Shown here: one piece after another, positions 2,665 through 49,117 of the stretch
How positions within the stretch are numbered: position 1 is the stretch's first letter
Layout of the letters: every line of letters begins with the position of its first letter
DNA from: Shigella phage vB_Shi_2KOFFS
Strand: one strand, 5' to 3'
Sequence record: PV615261
Length of the DNA: 53,672 nucleotides
Made by a program: the position numbers and the translations under genes
The notes under the pieces: generated by a model
Told to the model about the DNA's origin: nothing
The model's database searches: none
The model's input: only the letters and a program-made list of their open reading frames with translations

Positions 2665-3315
2665 ATGATTACTGCCACATTGGTCGACCACATGGGTAGC
2701 GACCTCACAACTGTTAATGCTGCACGAGCTTCTTATGGTGCAGAGTCACACGAAATGACTTTACGTGACGAGAAGCTGATTGAGTTTCTTGCAAAGCATA
2801 AGCACAATACACCTTTTGCCCATGCGTATGTGACATTACGCTGCACTGCGCCAATCTTTGTTGCACGCCAACTGGGCAAGCACCAGGTGGGCTTTCGTTG
2901 GAACGAAGTTAGCCGTCGTTACAAAGATGGCGAAGCAATCGAAATTGAATGCTTTGTACCTGATGTGATGTTTGGTCGTCCTGAAAAGTTGATGACTCAG
3001 ACTGCACAACCATTGCCACAAGATTTTGCTGACGATATTCACTATCGCATGGAAATCCACAACAAGGCTTGCATTGCAGAGTATGAAACGTTAATTGGTT
3101 TGGGGATTGCTCCAGAGCAAGCCCGAATGGTGTTGCCACAATCCATGATGACTACATGGATTTGGACTGGCTCTTTACTGGGCTGGGCTAATATGTACAA
3201 GCAACGCTCTACAGAGCACGCCCAATATGAGGCACGTTTGTTTGCAAAAGAAGTCAATAAAATTATGTCAGAGTTGTTTCCTGTTTGCTGGGAGGCACTC
3301 ATTAAACAGGAATAA
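2665..3315 (+). CDS. thyX: ThyX-family (flavin-dependent thymidylate synthase-like) protein
   Basis: Translation ARQLGKHQVGFRWNEVSRRY aligns to the ThyX RHR-x7-S region but reads KHQ instead of RHR; good RBS; position in nucleotide-metabolism block. Confidence 0.6.
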   Translation: MITATLVDHMGSDLTTVNAARASYGAESHEMTLRDEKLIEFLAKHKHNTPFAHAYVTLRCTAPIFVARQLGKHQVGFRWNEVSRRYKDGEAIEIECFVPDVMFGRPEKLMTQTAQPLPQDFADDIHYRMEIHNKACIAEYETLIGLGIAPEQARMVLPQSMMTTWIWTGSLLGWANMYKQRSTEHAQYEARLFAKEVNKIMSELFPVCWEALIKQE

Positions 3316-10192: not shown

Positions 10193-10937
10193 GCTCCTCG
10201 ATGATGGTACAAAATATACAAAGGCTCACGCACATGATTGGGAAGACCCAGACTGCCGTATCAAAGGGCGCTGTGAACTCTTCATCAAGATTGACGGAAT
10301 TCGAGCTATCCGTAATAAATCAGGTAGTGTCTGGAGTCGTAATTCCAAACCCCTACCTCATTTGGACCACTTACAGTTCAGAGATGCTGAAATATTCCGT
10401 AATAGTTGGAATGAGACTTCTAGCATCCTCGGACGTATTGACCCGCCAAGCATTCCTCTAACCCAGGACAATGTGTATGAGTTGAGCGATGGTGCTGTTG
10501 ACCCACGCTTGTACATCGGCTGGTGCAAAGACCCAAGCAATGAAAACCTTAAGGCATTGATGGATAAATATCTGGCGCTTGGTCATGAAGGTATCATTGT
10601 CCGTGATGCAAAAGGTAAATGGTGGAAGATTGTACCATATAAATATGCCGATGTGAAGATTACTGGTATGAAAGAAGGTACTGGTGCTCTTAAAGGTATG
10701 TGTGGCTCTATCTCCTCGAACTACGGCAGTGCTGGCTCAATGGTGAAAGATTGTCTGGCAGACCACGGTATTCCAGAATCTAACACATTGATTCGTAAGT
10801 GGTTGTGGGAACATCGCCACGAGCTAATTGGTTCGATTATGCAAGTTCGATATCGTGAGAAGACAGAAGCTGGTAAGTTCCGGTTCCCGTCACTCGTTCG
10901 TTTACGTGCAGACAAAAGTGAGGAAAGTTTTGATTAA
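10182..10937 (+). CDS. ATP-dependent DNA ligase (minimal type)
   Basis: Motif I FIKIDGIRAI (KxDGxR), motif IV HEGIIVRD, motif V WWKIVPYKYADVKITG. Confidence 0.8.
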   Translation: MSIKLLDDGTKYTKAHAHDWEDPDCRIKGRCELFIKIDGIRAIRNKSGSVWSRNSKPLPHLDHLQFRDAEIFRNSWNETSSILGRIDPPSIPLTQDNVYELSDGAVDPRLYIGWCKDPSNENLKALMDKYLALGHEGIIVRDAKGKWWKIVPYKYADVKITGMKEGTGALKGMCGSISSNYGSAGSMVKDCLADHGIPESNTLIRKWLWEHRHELIGSIMQVRYREKTEAGKFRFPSLVRLRADKSEESFD

Positions 10938-11555
10938 GCGATTAGCTGTTATTCTCAATGGACCTCCAGGCTGCGGTAAAGACACCATTGCAAATAAGAT
11001 TGTTGCTGCCGAGGAACCATACTTTCTCGGTAAGCGCAAGTTCATTAAACACCAGTTTAAGGATGCACTGTATGAGCATACTGCCAAACACTTTCAAGTT
11101 GATGTGGACAAGTTTATTCACTACGCTTCGGACCGTGACCTCAAAGACTCTATCTCCCTTGCAGGTCTTGGTGGCAGAACACCTCGTCAGGCTCTTATTC
11201 ACGTTAGCGAAGATGTGTATAAACCTCGCACGGACAAGACTACTTCGGTAAGGTTGAAGCTGCTCGTGTTGAAGAACTCGCGGGGCGTATGGGTGGCATT
11301 ATTAATGTCATTTATCCCGATGGCGGTTTTGGTGATGAAGTCGTTGCCATTGAGTCTGCTTATGATTTTGTCCTCATTGTGCGTTTGCATCGTGATGGTT
11401 TTGATTTCACGGGCGATTCTCGCAGATACATCAACCTCCCAGACACACCTACCCGCGTAACAGTGGACGAACATTTAGTTGATGGTAAAGTGGGTGATTC
11501 TGTATTCAAAGTGTTCAACTGGATTGAACGCGTAACTTATCAAGTAGAGAAATAA
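10930..11555 (+). CDS. P-loop nucleotide kinase (dNMP kinase-like), reading frame broken by a -1 frame change near 11223-11250
   Basis: Walker A LNGPPGCGKDT after TTG 10930 with GAGGA RBS; frame 1 stays protein-like to about 11240, then frame 3 (DYFGKVEAARVEELAGRMGG...) runs to stop 11555; no slippery heptamer. Confidence 0.5.
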
Positions 11556-11557
11556 TC

Positions 11558-12052
11558 ATGTCTTGTATGACCCAAGTTGTTGCTGTAAAGCGAGTGCATC
11601 CTAATGCGAAATTACCTGTGTACGCTACTGTTGGCGCTGCTGCTGCTGACGTTTGCACTATCTCCGATAGCACTGTTGTTATCAATCCCGGCTGCTCTGC
11701 TGTTTTCGATACTGGCCTCCAGTTCGAGGTTCCAGTTGGATACGAACTCAAAGTATATAGCCGTTCTGGTCATGGCTTTAAGTCTGGCATTCGCCTGGCA
11801 AACTGCACAGGAATTCTGGACTCCGATTATCGTGGCAATCTTATGGTTAAGTTGCACAATGACTCGGACACAGCCTTTGTGGTTCAGCCAGGTGAACGTA
11901 TTTGTCAAGTGCAAGTTAGTAAAGCTACTCAACACCATTTCGTTGAAGTTGACCGCTTGAATGCAACTGGTCGTGGTGAAGGTGGATTTGGCTCAACTGG
12001 TCGTGTGATGAGTGTAGTATTCGACATTAGTAACCGATTGGAACCTATCTGA
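11558..12052 (+). CDS. dut: dUTP pyrophosphatase
   Basis: dUTPase motifs AAADV, YSRSGHGFKSG, GILDSDYRGNL, RGEGGFGSTGR. Confidence 0.9.
   Translation: MSCMTQVVAVKRVHPNAKLPVYATVGAAAADVCTISDSTVVINPGCSAVFDTGLQFEVPVGYELKVYSRSGHGFKSGIRLANCTGILDSDYRGNLMVKLHNDSDTAFVVQPGERICQVQVSKATQHHFVEVDRLNATGRGEGGFGSTGRVMSVVFDISNRLEPI
12034..12051 (+). promoter_or_regulatory. degenerate copy of promoter-like motif inside the 3' end of dut
   Basis: TATTCGACATTAGTaaccgATTGG shares TATTCGACATTAGT with copy at 41894; immediately upstream of 12054 ORF and packaging genes. Confidence 0.3.
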
Positions 12053-36346: not shown

Positions 36347-36857
36347 GTATGAAGGGTTTGTTGAGAATACAAGCCTGACTGAAAGCCAACAAGTGCTCAG
36401 GGACGAGCACAAGATTCTATTCGGATGCGATAAGAATGGAACATGTTGGTATAAAATTCGTGAGTCTTTAAAGGACGGTACAGCCAAAGTTGTGTACGAA
36501 AATGATGGGACTATTCGACACATTGACTTTGGTCCTGGTGATACTGTGGCCACACCGCTGGGTGGGAACATAGTTGAGCTGGAGTCGCTGCCAGAGGGTG
36601 TTGAAGAAAACAGACACTTTTGGAAGTTTGATGGTGAGAAGTTTGTCGAGCATAAAGAAAACCGTGTGAAATACAACGAGTTTATGCGTAAGAAGAAACT
36701 TGCACCATTGACGGAAGAAATTGGCATTCTCACTGACATGGTTGAGCTTGGCATGGCCAAGAAGTCTGACAACGAACTGCTTATTAAACTCAAGAAGAAG
36801 CGTATCAAACTGTCTCAACTCGACCTAACCGAAACAATCGACTGGAATGAATTCTAA
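36327..36857 (+). CDS. tail fibre assembly chaperone (Tfa-like)
   Basis: C-terminal LTDMVELGMAKKSDNELLIKLKKKRIKLSQLDL resembles the conserved C-terminal region of Mu/P2-type tail fibre assembly proteins. Confidence 0.6.
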   Translation: MTAILCKYEGFVENTSLTESQQVLRDEHKILFGCDKNGTCWYKIRESLKDGTAKVVYENDGTIRHIDFGPGDTVATPLGGNIVELESLPEGVEENRHFWKFDGEKFVEHKENRVKYNEFMRKKKLAPLTEEIGILTDMVELGMAKKSDNELLIKLKKKRIKLSQLDLTETIDWNEF

Positions 36858-37198
36858 TGGATAGACAAACTTTCCAGATGATTTGGGAAGCAATGCACCA
36901 ATACGGCGTTTGGCATGGACTGTTGGCTGGACTGACAGCCTTAATCCGTGGTGCATATGAGAGTGAGGGTTTAAGCAAAGCGTTGCTGGATGCGACGCTA
37001 TGCAGCTTAATCGGCCTGTTTGCATTTCAGGTCGCAGGTACATTTGAAACTTTCACAACTAACGTTACTATGCAGTTGGTGTTAGCTATTGTGATTGGTG
37101 TCATTGGTGCCAACCTCATTATCACAACTGTCAGAGAAAGTTTCTCTGGCGCAATCAAACAACTTAATCCTTTGACGTGGTTCAAGAAGGCACGATGA
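36857..37198 (+). CDS. holin (three predicted transmembrane segments)
   Basis: 113 aa with three hydrophobic helices; immediately upstream of the hydrolase. Confidence 0.6.
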   Translation: MDRQTFQMIWEAMHQYGVWHGLLAGLTALIRGAYESEGLSKALLDATLCSLIGLFAFQVAGTFETFTTNVTMQLVLAIVIGVIGANLIITTVRESFSGAIKQLNPLTWFKKAR

Positions 37199-37215: not shown

Positions 37216-37770
37216 ATGTTATCATTCAAAGTCCTTGCACTTCTGACAGCTTTAGTTCACATCAACGCCCCAGCTTCGGTTGGGGCAGTGAATTCTGCTA
37301 TTACAGATTTTGCAAGTCACTCTTATTTAAATGGAAGTCTGAAACTATCTTCTTCACAACGCAAAGAGCTAGAATGCTACACTAAAGTTATCTGGTATGA
37401 AGCTCGCGGAGAAGACAAACATGGAAAGATTCTGGTAGCTAATGTCGTCCGTAATAGAACTAAGTTCGGGAAGCCATTCGCTAACACCGTTTGTGATGTT
37501 GTCTATCAACGCAACCAATTTGCATGGACACGAGAAGCAAAGAAGAAGAATGCTCAATGGAAGCATGTAGCAAAGGTTAATTATGCCACAGAACAACAAC
37601 AAGTTCTGGACACCATTAATGTTGCAATCTCTTTTGTATTATTTAATCAACCCTCTGTCACCAAAGCAACCCACTTTTGTACAGCATCGGAGAAGTGCAA
37701 CTTCAAGAATGTTAAAGGTTTGGGACGTTATGGTGGCCATAAATTCTATGAGTATCTAGGAAATCTGTAA
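37216..37770 (+). CDS. SleB-type cell wall hydrolase with N-terminal signal peptide (endolysin)
   Basis: Signal-like [24 protein letters not shown]; SleB-family block [28 protein letters not shown]...[13 protein letters not shown]. Confidence 0.7.
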
Positions 37771-38870
37771 TGGCTTACACTACCTTTTCACAAACCAAGA
37801 ATAACCAACTATTAGAACCAATGTTCTTTGGTCAGAACGTTAACGTTGCTCGATATGACCAACAGAAGTACAGCATCTTCGAGAAGTTAATCGAGAAGCA
37901 GTTATCTTTCTTTTGGCGACCTGAGGAGGTTGATGTTAGCCAGGACCGAATTGACTATGCTGGTCTTCCTGAGTGTGAGAAACACATTTTCACCAGCAAT
38001 TTACGATACCAAATCCTGCTTGATTCCATTCAGGGACGCGGACCAACCACAGTTTTACTACCAATTGTGAGCATTCCTGAGCTGGAAACTTGGATTGAAA
38101 CTTGGTCATTTTCGGAGACAATTCACTCTCGCTCTTACACGCATATTATTCGTAATATCGTGACAGACCCAAGTGTCATTTTCGATGAAATTGTGGAGAA
38201 TGAGCACATTAAAATGCGTGCAATCGGCATCTCCCAATATTATGACGAGCTTCAACATCTGACTTCCATGTGGCATCTGCATGAAGATAAAGTTTCTCTT
38301 CGTGAGCTTAAGAAGAAGCTGTATTTATGCCTCATGTCCATTAATGCACTGGAAGCAATTCGCTTTTATGTCAGTTTTGCTTGCTCATTTGCCTTCGCTG
38401 AACGTAAGTTAATGGAAGGAAATGCCAAGATTATTCGCTTAATTGCTCGTGATGAAGCACTCCATTTGACCGGAACTCAGCACATGCTGAACCTTCTTGC
38501 AAGCGGTGTTGATGACCCAGAAATGGCCGAAATTGCTAAAGAATGCCGTCAAGAATGCCAAGAAATGTTCGAAAATGTGGCCCAACAAGAGAAAGATTGG
38601 GCTGATTATTTGTTCAAAGATGGCTCAATGATTGGCTTAAATAAGCAAATTCTGTGCGGATATGTGGAATATATCACGAATATTCGTATGCAAGCAGTTG
38701 GATTGGATGCTCCATTCAAAGGTGCTACTAACCCGATTCCTTGGATTAACGCATGGCTAAATTCGGATGCTGTACAAGTTGCTCCACAAGAAACGGAGAT
38801 TAGTTCGTACCTTGTCGGGCAGATTGATTCCGAAGTGGACACCAATGCTCTGGGCGGATTTGAGCTGTAA
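37770..38870 (+). CDS. nrdB: ribonucleotide reductase small subunit (class Ia R2-like)
   Basis: [20 protein letters not shown] and [30 protein letters not shown] match iron-ligand and tyrosyl-radical regions of class Ia NrdB. Confidence 0.75.
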
Positions 38871-39015
38871 CGATTATATGCGAGAAGAGATTCGATGCGT
38901 TAGCATCGTTTCTCTTTGAGCTAGAATAAAACAAGTAAATTAAATATTTATTTATTCCCAATATTGCTACAATATTAAGAGTAATATTAGGAATGCGTAA
39001 AGTTAAAACCAAATG

Positions 39016-39050: not shown

Positions 39051-39419
39051 CGTTCACGGTCGGTCAGCTGTATCTCGCCGAAATTTGTTCGAACAGTTGT
39101 CTGACTATGAAATAATTTTTTTTTTATAATTTTTTTTTATTCTTAATATTGTTACAGAATTAATGAGACTAAAATTCGTAACAAAGCTACGAGACTCGAC
39201 TTGTTACAATATTAATGAGACTCGAATTGTGGCAATATTAATTTTTTATTTTTAGGGGCCGGGGAGCAGAAGCCCAACGTCCTATCGGACTTAAATACGG
39301 TCCCTACTCCAACTTTTTCCTACAGCCTATCGGCTTTCAAACAACACCAAGTTAGGCGCTTCGCTTATAAGTCAAGGTCAAAGGCAATCAGAGTACGCTG
39401 TTGTAATGTGCTAATCTCA

Positions 39420-39436
39420 CCATTAGTTGGTTGTGA
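39420..39436 (+). promoter_or_regulatory. conserved promoter-like motif (CATTAGTTGG family), upstream of RNA polymerase gene
   Basis: cCATTAGTTGGtTGTGA; one of at least 9 copies of consensus ACATTAGTTGGATGTGAA. Confidence 0.45.
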
Positions 39437-39498
39437 TTATGAATAGGCTACGCAAGTCTAATCCGTTTCAGTTAAATCATAATCAATTGGAGACTATC

Positions 39499-41613
39499 AT
39501 GACTAACGAAGAATACCGTGCACTGGCTGCTGATGGCGCTCGCTTGAAAGAAGAAGGCCAAGGTTGGAAAGACGTGCTCGATACGATGGACCGTTGCAAT
39601 CAGATGGTAGATGAAATCACCTCCGCTACACAATCCGAAACTAAAACCGAAACTAAATTGGAGACTCGCAAAATGACAACTATCTCAACTCAAACTATCA
39701 AATCCGTTGTCCCTGCTATCACTGCTCTGGTATATCGTGCCAAAGAGAAACAGAACTACATGCAACCTCAGACCTGTGCTATTGCTGCTCTTGCAATCTT
39801 TAAGATGATGACCTCATTCACTCGTGATGATGTTGTTCCTGCAATTGCAATGGTTGAGCTGGCTTCTGCTTCAATTGCTGATGCCAACCGCTACAACAAC
39901 GATTTGAAAGCAATGCACTATGTTGACCCAGCTATCAACCTCATTGGTCTGGCTAAACACTTTGGCTTCATCACCATGAACGAAGATAAGTCATTCCAAC
40001 AAACTGACACATGGGTTGAACTGGTTACAACCAAAGACACAGCAGTGCCATTCACTGAGCGTGTTACATCTGAATCTCGTCGCAAGCCTTTCGTTAAAGG
40101 TGGCAAAGTTAAGCCATCCAAGACTCTGAAAGCTGCAATCGAATTCCTGCAAGATACTGAGTACCATGTGGAGACTGAGATGGTTCGCATCATTCAGTCC
40201 ATGCTTGAGCAACGTACTTATGGTGGCTTGCAGATGCCAGAAGCAATCCAGACTGAACTCCATGTTTGGAACAATGCTGTAGCAATGATGAATCAGGACA
40301 CACTGTATTCTGACTACTTTGCTGATAACCGTGGCCGTCTGTATCATGTAGCATGTGCTGGCCCTAACCCACAATCCTCTGACTTTGCTCGTTGCTTGTA
40401 TTCTCACAATGTTGAGAACATCGTTAAGAAGTTTAACGAAGATGGTTCTACTACCATTGCATACAACATGTTCATGGCAGAGCTGGAAGATATTTCTGGT
40501 GGTGAATGGTGCAGTGCTAAACGTTTAACTTATGTTGCTCAGAATCCGGCTGGTTCACTTGCTCGCATGATGAACATGCCTAAAGCTGAACGTCCTTCCA
40601 AGCCATTCACTTATGTTCGTCTGGCTCTGGATTGGTTCAAGTTTGAGACTATAGGTGAATGCGATTCTCGTGTAGGCTTTGGCTTAGATGCTAAATGTTC
40701 TGGTACTCAATATCTGGCATTCATTGCTGGTAACATGGAAATGGCTCGTGCTACAGGTCTGGTTGATTCTGAGACTAAAGCATCTGACCCATACCAGTTG
40801 AGTCTCCGTGAACTGTTGAAGTTACTCGACCGCTCTTCAATGAAGCCATCTCCTGAAATCATGGACGAATTCTTGAATCCGAAATCTGGTCGTAAGTTTA
40901 TCAAAACTCCGTACATGGCTATCCAATATGGTGGTGGTAAAGCTGCATTAACTGGTTCTTCTGACTTTATCTCCTACATGACAGAAGCGCTCCAGATTCC
41001 TATGGAGAAAGCTGAGGCATTTGCTGAACTGTGTGTAGAAGCAATCCATAACGCATTGGGTGCTAAGATTAACATGTTCATTGAGAAAGCTGCTGATGCT
41101 GCATACAACCGTTGTGTTGAACTTGGTAAAGAGTACATCACATACCGTCACACAGACGGTCAGGTTGTAATGAAGCCTTGCTTCCCATCTCGTGAAATCT
41201 GTGAGGCATTCAGCATTCGTGTTGACTCTCAAACTCGTGTCATCTTTGGCCAGATTCAGGAGAATAAGCCTTGGACCATTCGTGAATCCAACCCAACTAA
41301 AGAAGAATTCAAGCGTACTTTCGTTGTTAACTACATTCAAGGTATTGACGCATTGGTTGCTCGTACTGTTGCAGTTAAAGCTAAAGAAGCTGGTCTTCGT
41401 GGTTTTACTTCAATCCATGATTGTTTCCGTTGCTGTCTGGCAGATGCTCCACGTATGATGGAAGTTATTCGTGCAGCATATGTTGAAATCTTCGTAACCA
41501 ACAATCAATTCGAGAATCTGTCTAAGCAACTTGGTGGCATTCAGATGTATCATGAGAACATCGTAACCGAAGAGCTTCTGATGAGCGAACACGCTTACTA
41601 CTTCTGTCAATAA
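39499..41613 (+). CDS. T7-like single-subunit DNA-dependent RNA polymerase
   Basis: Motif A GLDAKCSGTQYLAFIAG (T7 DGSCSGIQH), motif B RKFIKTPYMAIQYGGGK, motif C FTSIHDCFRC (T7 IHDSFGT); ATG 39499 after GGAG; about 704 aa. Confidence 0.8.
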   Translation: MTNEEYRALAADGARLKEEGQGWKDVLDTMDRCNQMVDEITSATQSETKTETKLETRKMTTISTQTIKSVVPAITALVYRAKEKQNYMQPQTCAIAALAIFKMMTSFTRDDVVPAIAMVELASASIADANRYNNDLKAMHYVDPAINLIGLAKHFGFITMNEDKSFQQTDTWVELVTTKDTAVPFTERVTSESRRKPFVKGGKVKPSKTLKAAIEFLQDTEYHVETEMVRIIQSMLEQRTYGGLQMPEAIQTELHVWNNAVAMMNQDTLYSDYFADNRGRLYHVACAGPNPQSSDFARCLYSHNVENIVKKFNEDGSTTIAYNMFMAELEDISGGEWCSAKRLTYVAQNPAGSLARMMNMPKAERPSKPFTYVRLALDWFKFETIGECDSRVGFGLDAKCSGTQYLAFIAGNMEMARATGLVDSETKASDPYQLSLRELLKLLDRSSMKPSPEIMDEFLNPKSGRKFIKTPYMAIQYGGGKAALTGSSDFISYMTEALQIPMEKAEAFAELCVEAIHNALGAKINMFIEKAADAAYNRCVELGKEYITYRHTDGQVVMKPCFPSREICEAFSIRVDSQTRVIFGQIQENKPWTIRESNPTKEEFKRTFVVNYIQGIDALVARTVAVKAKEAGLRGFTSIHDCFRCCLADAPRMMEVIRAAYVEIFVTNNQFENLSKQLGGIQMYHENIVTEELLMSEHAYYFCQ

Positions 41614-48432: not shown

Positions 48433-48704
48433 TTTCGATAGACCAAGTTCCAGTTGAACTAAGTAAGGCAAAAGGTAAGCTAGATGATGCCAAATCTGAC
48501 TTATCTACCTTTGATTTAAATGCTCCGGCCGATAAAGTTAAAGTTTTCATCGACTGTATTGACGGATGGGTGCTTGTTGAGCACGCAGTCCTTCGAGCAT
48601 TACTTGTTGATGAAGTTACCAAGGCTCAGGCATCATTTGATGAACTTGATAACCTCAACACACTGTTAAACAATACTTTAAACGATGCGTTAAAGGGTAA
48701 ATAA
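48429..48704 (+). CDS. hypothetical protein (91 aa)
   Basis: ATGA overlap. Confidence 0.45.
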   Translation: MISIDQVPVELSKAKGKLDDAKSDLSTFDLNAPADKVKVFIDCIDGWVLVEHAVLRALLVDEVTKAQASFDELDNLNTLLNNTLNDALKGK

Positions 48705-49117
48705 TGAATGTTAAGCTCGGTCAACGTTCTTTAGACCGACTTAAGGGAGTAAATCCTTCATTAGTTGCAGTTTTCAAACGAGCATGTGAAACCATGCCTT
48801 TTGATGTAACTGTTTTGGAAGGTTTACGCTCTTATGAACGTCAACAAGAACTGTTAAAACAAGGTGCAACCAAAGTTTCAGTAAGCCGACACATGTCTGG
48901 TAACGCTTTGGACATTGCACCATATCCAATTGACTGGAATGACCTCGAACGATTCAAAGTTTTAGCTCATCACATGTTCAAAGCTGCAAAAGAGCTTGGA
49001 ATTACCATTCGTTGGGGCGGGAACTGGAGCCGTATTGATGAAAATCAGCCGTATCCACCACTTGCACCAGGTAAGAAGAAGCTGATTGATATGCCCCACT
49101 TCGAACTTCCAGCATAA
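48704..49117 (+). CDS. peptidase M15 family cell-wall peptidase (zinc D,D- or L-Ala-D-Glu peptidase fold)
   Basis: Zinc-ligand pattern [13 protein letters not shown] plus C-terminal MPHFEL; 137 aa, no signal peptide. Confidence 0.65.

Follow-up and report, generated by a model that had tools for sequence, protein, structure and literature searches.

An orphan gene for a class Ia ribonucleotide reductase small subunit in a Carltongylesvirus phage and its possible pairing with the host large subunit

We analyzed a stretch of 53,672 nucleotides from Shigella phage vB_Shi_2KOFFS (PV615261; hereafter, the window), in which all genes lie on the + strand. An open reading frame (ORF) at 37770..38870 (+), running from ATG to TAA, encodes a 366-aa small subunit (beta, R2; gene nrdB) of ribonucleotide reductase (RNR). 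The initial annotation had placed this gene after the lysis genes rather than with the other nucleotide-metabolism genes, and this position was confirmed: nrdB comes right after the holin and endolysin genes, far from thyX (2665..3315; the product is flavin-dependent ThyX, not ThyA) and from the dUTPase gene (11558..12052). A P-loop protein encoded at 10828-11460 is annotated as a dNMP kinase in relatives. The features of the locus are listed below, with the residues of the phage protein numbered according to E. coli NrdB.

36857..37198, + strand: holin, part of the upstream lysis cassette
37216..37770, + strand: endolysin (Hydrolase_2; Pfam), part of the upstream lysis cassette
37758-37763, + strand: Shine-Dalgarno-like AGGAAA within the 3' end of the endolysin gene, 6 nt (CTGTA-A) before the nrdB ATG
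37770..38870, + strand: nrdB, class Ia RNR beta (R2), from Pfam, NCBIfam and structure matches
38022..38138, + strand: first half of the di-iron/radical site, with D84 (38022-38024), E115 (38115-38117), H118 (38124-38126) and Tyr122 (38136-38138), all conserved in the alignment
38280..38297, + strand: site of a 10-aa deletion, between HED and KVS, replacing E. coli residues 173-182 (alignment and AlphaFold2)
38352..38465, + strand: second half of the di-iron site, with E204 (38352-38354), D237 (38451-38453), E238 (38454-38456) and H241 (38463-38465), all conserved in the alignment
38790..38867, + strand: C-terminal tail for radical transfer and docking on alpha (E350, Y356 and the last stretch of the protein), from the alignment
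38893..38918, + strand: terminator-like hairpin CGATGCGTTAGCATCG followed by T-rich TTTCTCTTTG, 23 nt past the nrdB stop

The stop codon of the endolysin gene (TAA, 37768-37770) shares one base with the nrdB start codon (ATG, 37770-37772), and this overlap suggests translational coupling of nrdB to the lysis cassette. The same Shine-Dalgarno sequence has been noted for phage ST32 (PMC6266442). Downstream, the hairpin at 38893..38918 would end the late transcription unit, and a search for the phage-specific promoter core ATTAGTTGGA, with one mismatch allowed, gave no match within 10401-39422. By its sequence context, nrdB looks like the last cistron of a long late unit, expressed with the lysis genes. 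Beyond the hairpin, the RNA polymerase ORF as called mechanically (39427..41613; 728 aa from a TTG start) exceeds that of relatives (617 aa, starting near 39765) by about 110 aa. A 20-mer resembling the phage promoter, CACCATTAGTTGGTTGTGAT, occupies 39418-39437, and the true start of the RNA polymerase gene is therefore probably downstream.

Database models were used to determine the family and class of the phage protein. It matched the Pfam family PF00268 (Ribonuc_red_sm; E=3.8e-49, 168 bits against a cutoff of 33.6) and, along residues 1-366, NF006576, the NCBIfam equivalog model for class Ia beta (E=3.4e-211; score 700.8 bits, cutoff 346), and its top matches among solved structures were E. 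coli R2 (E ~2e-200). Scores for other models fell far below their cutoffs, both for the class Ib NrdF model TIGR04171 (100.4 bits, cutoff 355) and for the R2-like ligand-binding oxidase models (NF006198: 26.3 bits, cutoff 274; NF006200: 22.8 bits, cutoff 194). The two NrdB signature blocks, described as near-exact in the initial annotation, are both present and match E. coli NrdB exactly (residues 115-131 and 225-239). The beta subunit of class Ic enzymes has Phe at the radical-tyrosine position, and the tyrosine kept at position 122 of the phage protein thus excludes this class. The class Ia assignment proposed at the outset holds: with more than twice the cutoff score for the equivalog and the tyrosyl-radical residue in place, the phage protein, beyond any doubt an RNR small subunit, belongs to class Ia, and all of the sequence-level class Ia NrdB features that we tested were found in it. 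Two SKA49 records (OL741059.1 and NC_079180.1) label the same NrdB as 'class 1b'; we rejected this label, because the NCBIfam scores (class Ia: 700.8 bits; NrdF: 100.4 bits) clearly place the protein in class Ia.

Compared to E. coli NrdB, the phage protein shows 82% identity over aligned positions (300/376 when the gap is counted). All six iron ligands (D84, E115, H118, E204, E238, and H241) are kept in the alignment, as are the radical-bearing Y122 and the hydrophobic residues that form its pocket (F208, F212, and I234), the residues for radical transfer (W48, D237, E350, and Y356), and the C-terminal anchor residues L370, F373, and L375. In its iron ligands, Tyr122, radical-transfer residues, docking tail, and NCBIfam equivalog, the protein is therefore like E. 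coli NrdB (PDB 1RIB, 1MXR, and 6W4X). The tail was also compared across 114 bacterial NrdBs, in which positions 341-350, 352, 354-357, 359-362, 373, and 375 do not vary. Only one of these residues is changed in the phage protein, by N343A just upstream of 38790..38867, and the other tail changes of the protein (351, 353, 368, 369, 371, 372, and 374) fall at positions that vary among the same bacterial proteins. Twenty-one substitutions are specific to Carltongylesvirus and fall at positions with at least 90% conservation among bacteria.

The deletion at 38280..38297 differs in length among phage copies (GJ1-type: 4 aa; FXie-2024a: 7 aa; window: 10 aa). In the AlphaFold2 model of a bacterial homolog (P0005), a beta-hairpin with strands at 174-178 and 181-185 occupies this site (local pLDDT ~85–92), whereas in the model of the window protein two helices are joined by a short linker at the same place. 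Mean pLDDT values of the two models were 58 and 62, reflecting a shallow alignment, and only the locally confident hairpin region was used. The 10-aa deletion is thus the sole structural change in the phage NrdB, and by these models it takes away a surface beta-hairpin.

To place the gene in its genome, the window was compared to related phages. It corresponds to a complete, rotated genome of a phiEcoM-GJ1-like Carltongylesvirus (Chaseviridae, Cleopatravirinae) and is colinear, with rotation, to Escherichia phage vB_EcoM_SA91KD (53,673 bp). Most of it aligns to SA91KD at 85–98% nucleotide identity, with stretches of tail-protein genes at only 73–77%. The end and the start of the window adjoin in the SA91KD record, and this, together with the colinearity, bears out the earlier suggestion that the window may be the whole genome.

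The genome carries no gene for a large subunit (alpha, R1; nrdA), as had been claimed from the ORF list. Using E. coli NrdA as query, a six-frame tblastn search of the window returned a best match of E=0.29 over 20 aa, and an NrdA from an Aeromonas chasevirid (31%-divergent) returned nothing at E<=1. Among all 20 ORFs of at least 216 aa, Pfam found no RNR large-subunit domain of any class, no ATP-cone, and no NrdD domain, and every ORF of at least 500 aa was otherwise assigned by Pfam (primase-helicase, DNA polymerase A, terminase, an SLT-containing 1223-aa tail protein, and T7-like RNA polymerase). A hidden or split nrdA was ruled out by the six-frame searches with two NrdAs and the Pfam analysis of ORFs of at least 216 aa. 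The window locus is not a self-sufficient phage nrdAB of the T4 type, because the alpha gene is absent from the complete genome. Nor did we find remnants of nrdA or yfaE flanking nrdB. The Pfam scan covered 60 window ORFs, out of 81 non-overlapping + strand ORFs of at least 50 aa; among these 60 there were no matches to NrdI or NrdH and none to ferredoxin, thioredoxin, or glutaredoxin. The helpers YfaE, thioredoxin, glutaredoxin, and NrdI were likewise found neither by tblastn nor by Pfam in 40 small + strand ORFs. Two observations could have overturned the description of the gene as an orphan R2, namely a lost tyrosyl-radical residue on proper alignment or an nrdA elsewhere in the genome; in the alignment to E. 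coli NrdB, Y122 is intact, and the whole-genome searches gave no nrdA.

Using the Nei-Gojobori method, dN/dS among six phage nrdB copies was 0.03–0.08, with dS up to 0.9. For example, the window protein is 100% identical to SA91KD gp78, with 0 amino-acid changes between the two genes at dS=0.20 (~20% synonymous divergence). The gene is intact in 6/6 phage copies aligned, and full-length tblastn matches (100% of the query) were found in 40/40 records among the matches listed. Between the phage and E. coli genes, synonymous divergence has reached saturation (pS 0.89), and the GC3 of phage nrdB (0.42) is like that of other phage genes, not like that of E. coli nrdB (0.63). Saturated synonymous sites and phage-like GC3 in a gene whose protein is still 82% identical to that of E. 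coli point to an old capture, and they contradict a recent capture from E. coli. Judged from these substitution patterns, the window nrdB is an old capture under strong constraint, and not a recent pick-up or a decaying remnant. An NrdB of at least 90% identity occurs in 45 records and a Carltongylesvirus-type terminase of at least 95% identity also in 45; these equal counts, which compare totals and not individual records, are compatible with nrdB being core or universal in the genus. One further record, PP952070.1 ('Staphylococcus phage Pel53', host S. hyicus), is Carltongylesvirus-like, with 88% nucleotide identity to the window at 36–42 kb and a 90.9% identical NrdB. Its host label looks wrong, or the phage looks like a contaminant of an enterobacterial culture.

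The orphan nrdB of the phiEcoM-GJ1 group has been known as a fact since 2013. In a survey of phage RNR genes, Dwivedi et al. 2013 (PMC3653736) tabulated two phages as 'nrdB only', phiEcoM-GJ1 among them, and left undecided whether incomplete RNR sets work, and the ST32 paper (PMC6266442) merely names nrdB in its gene list. The gene is annotated in >40 GenBank records. We found no published work on the function of the Carltongylesvirus orphan nrdB in a search that did not cover the 2008 phiEcoM-GJ1 genome paper. With gene and orphan status already in GenBank and in the 2013 survey, little is added here as discovery; the part that may be new is only the link, described below, to the orphan nrdB-yfaE pair of OBP-like jumbo phages.

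Within the genus, the gene occupies the same place (endolysin - nrdB - RNA polymerase) in phiEcoM-GJ1 (gp75) and in the ST32, flopper, SA91KD, MLP1, and PYps phages, with 90–100% protein identity, and the length of Carltongylesvirus NrdBs differs only with the hairpin indel (366, 369, or 372 aa). Outside the genus, Erwinia phage Aioli (Loessnervirus, a sister genus in the same subfamily) has its holin and endolysin genes separated from the RNA polymerase gene by two small ORFs; in this one Loessnervirus genome no RNR gene was found by annotation or by tblastn. In Aeromonas phage PAGF2_10BT, whose terminase is 60% identical to that of the window, the ligase and terminase genes flank a complete set of nrdA (706 aa), gf54, and nrdB (365 aa). 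The NrdB of this phage shares only 31% identity with the window NrdB and has a different tail. Given this divergence, the different location of the Aeromonas genes, and the absence of RNR genes from Aioli, we infer that the window nrdB was acquired independently, at the end of the late operon; the same observations speak against vertical descent from a family-level nrdAB, which we rejected.

To identify relatives of the protein, the phage NrdBs were compared to bacterial and other phage sequences. The closest of the 114 bacterial homologs sampled was that of E. coli K-12 (82%), with other Enterobacterales and Vibrio at 77–80%. In a neighbor-joining (NJ) tree of this one protein, Carltongylesvirus NrdBs were sister to the 377-aa NrdBs of jumbo phages with 91% support (100 bootstraps), and the two groups have derived residues in common at otherwise conserved sites (S90G, L98I, E222K, R253A, and D369A). 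Pantoea phage Survivor falls within the jumbo sister group; Pseudomonas phage OBP, Edwardsiella phage pEt-SU, Klebsiella phage N1M2, and others are relatives of this group. Like the window, the OBP-like nucleus-forming jumbo phages (OBP, N1M2, pEt-SU, and Survivor) encode an enterobacterial-type NrdB (73–79% identical); unlike the window, they have the full-length hairpin and an adjoining YfaE-like ferredoxin. In OBP (NC_016571.1, 207567-208954), for example, a gene for an NrdB with 79% identity to that of E. coli precedes a ferredoxin gene whose product is 61% identical to E. coli YfaE. The entire 284,757-bp genome of OBP, the one jumbo-phage genome fully checked, contains no nrdA by annotation or tblastn. 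A metagenomic relative has the same nrdB-Fer2 pair with no nrdA adjacent, and NrdB is the only RNR entry in the N1M2 genome paper (PMC7058600). An orphan nrdB of enterobacterial type is thus found in two phage groups that are not related to each other. Transfer from phage to phage may account for this; with the shared residues and an NJ tree of one protein, which is no strong proof, we consider it fairly likely. Among the bacterial sequences, the NrdB of GCA_054570795.1 (10001-11485 of the excerpt examined) is 494 aa long, with tandem inserts ending in PVSYTHLDVYKRQ. This sequence is a translated Nextera adapter, and the inserts are an assembly artefact within an otherwise normal nrdA-nrdB-yfaE locus.

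Compared to known systems, the phage gene differs from its E. coli counterpart in several respects. In E. coli, nrdB belongs to an nrdA-nrdB-yfaE operon, whereas the phage copy stands alone, with phage-like codon composition, the 21 lineage-specific changes, and no 10-aa beta-hairpin. With T4 nrdAB and the nrdA-gf54-nrdB of PAGF2_10BT it shares the enzyme family and the general purpose of dNTP supply in infection, but these two phages encode both subunits, inside the replication module. Campylobacter phage CPt10 is, like the window, a case of nrdB without nrdA (PMC3653736). However, CPt10 has an nrdA pseudogene, interrupted and degenerating (PMC3653736), whereas the window holds no trace of nrdA and its nrdB is strongly selected.

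The initial annotation left two roles for an orphan R2, pairing with the host R1 or some other function. Our comparisons favour the pairing. Phage beta2 probably docks on host NrdA and makes a hybrid class Ia reductase, a proposal that starts from the absence of an alpha subunit in the phage. In this scheme, the phage nrdB would encode a catalytically competent di-iron, tyrosyl-radical R2 of enterobacterial type and act as an auxiliary metabolic gene of Carltongylesvirus phages; its product would dock through a host-type C-terminal tail onto host NrdA (alpha2), and the resulting alpha2(host)-beta2(phage) complex would reduce NDPs to dNDPs, sustaining or raising the dNTP supply for phage DNA synthesis. 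The pairing is favoured because strong purifying selection has preserved E350, Y356, F373, L375, and the tail positions that do not vary among bacteria. To our knowledge, E350, Y356, and the C-terminal tail have no use besides docking on alpha and radical transfer to alpha. The contrast with the Aeromonas chasevirid is consistent with this reading, in that its NrdB, encoded together with an NrdA in one genome, ends in a tail that is unrelated. E. coli YfaE is the cofactor-maintenance protein, and its YfaE-like counterpart in jumbo phages also points to an active radical subunit, since cofactor maintenance matters only for such a subunit.

From general knowledge of RNR, the radical-bearing subunit may be the one worth supplying. 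The beta subunit carries a labile, stoichiometric radical, higher R2 alone is a classic route to more RNR capacity (e.g., in hydroxyurea resistance), and nrdB is half as large as nrdA. Some features sit less easily with a hybrid reductase. In OBP, a Pseudomonas phage, simple host pairing would fit poorly, because the class Ia RNR of the host is presumably of a different subclass. The position of nrdB as the last cistron of a structural and lysis unit, outside the replication module, implies an odd timing for a dNTP boost, and the 21 lineage-specific substitutions or the loss of the hairpin could each alter function.

These same changes lead to the strongest of the competing explanations, in which beta2 also pairs with host NrdA and the value of the phage copy lies in changed properties and not in extra copies, such as escape from the dATP-inhibited alpha4beta4 ring, escape from host radical-content control, or escape from a radical scavenger. 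In its favour, besides the 21 substitutions at conserved sites, the beta-hairpin has become progressively shorter in the phage lineage (by 4, 7, and 10 aa). However, we could tie none of the changed residues to a regulatory surface. The one beta residue reported as key to the inhibitory alpha-beta interface is I297, which packs on alpha I47 (PMC11447812), yet I297 and the whole loop DGSMIGLNK are unchanged in the phage NrdB. Escape from dATP inhibition through loss of the hairpin is thus not supported, and we regard the explanation by changed properties as unlikely overall.

Somewhat less likely again is a function outside RNR, in which the protein would work by itself as a ferritin-like di-iron oxidase, handle iron, or pass a radical to some other partner. 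No alpha is encoded by the phage, nrdB lies among lysis genes and not among nucleotide-metabolism genes, and an orphan copy is also present in a Pseudomonas jumbo phage. Against such a role, E350, Y356, and the docking tail serve only the work with alpha, yet they are invariant at dN/dS <0.1; the ligand-binding oxidase models reached only 23–26 bits against cutoffs of 194–274; and the 60 ORFs of the window covered by Pfam (81 in total) offered no other candidate partner.

A dominant-negative decoy, in which the phage protein would occupy host NrdA via its tail and shut down host dNTP synthesis, is very improbable. A host-type tail would permit the binding, but an intact di-iron site, Tyr122, and radical path would be needless for a decoy and are strictly conserved all the same; the phage replicates its own DNA and so needs dNTPs, and the related jumbo phages pair nrdB with a YfaE-like cofactor-maintenance ferredoxin. 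Most improbable of all is a non-functional passenger or decaying remnant of a former nrdAB operon: nrdB is indeed the only RNR gene in the genome and its indel region is shrinking, but the selection analysis (dN/dS 0.03–0.08, and no amino-acid change from SA91KD at ~20% synonymous divergence) effectively refutes this idea, with the copies intact (6/6 aligned) or full-length (40/40 among the matches listed) and no remnants of nrdA or yfaE on either side.

Returning to the hybrid reductase, we tentatively extend it to a broader proposal that we hold as possible. An enterobacterial-type radical subunit, with or without a YfaE-like ferredoxin, may be a portable phage auxiliary gene, forming a phage-specific clade that has moved between unrelated groups (53-kb Carltongylesvirus and 250–285-kb OBP-like jumbo phages) with no alpha encoded as far as checked, and running a chimeric host alpha2-phage beta2 RNR. 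Cyanophages, which supply only the high-turnover subunit of a photosystem, offer an analogy for such beta-only phages. If this proposal is true, it is active beta2 and not alpha2 that sets the limit on dNTP synthesis in enterobacteria during infection. A hybrid enzyme, if real, would be a clean example from nature of a virus that completes a host enzyme of two subunits by supplying the radical-generating half only, and it would show which subunit limits dNTP supply in infection. The phage protein would also be a natural E. coli-compatible R2 variant (no hairpin and 21 substitutions) for studies of docking and radical transfer. For annotation of phage genomes, these results carry a warning: a match to nrdB does not imply a complete RNR pathway.

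Two other observations concern the same genome. It encodes two muralytic enzymes, a Peptidase_M15_4 protein of the L-Ala-D-Glu peptidase type whose gene lies in the early/middle region (48704-49117) and the Hydrolase_2 (SleB-like) endolysin (37216-37770) beside the holin gene. In addition, the 1223-aa tail protein at 23377-27048 ('tail fiber' in relatives) contains a YqaJ-like nuclease/recombinase domain (residues 459-595, E=2e-12) together with a C-terminal SLT lytic transglycosylase domain, which is an unusual pairing for a virion protein.
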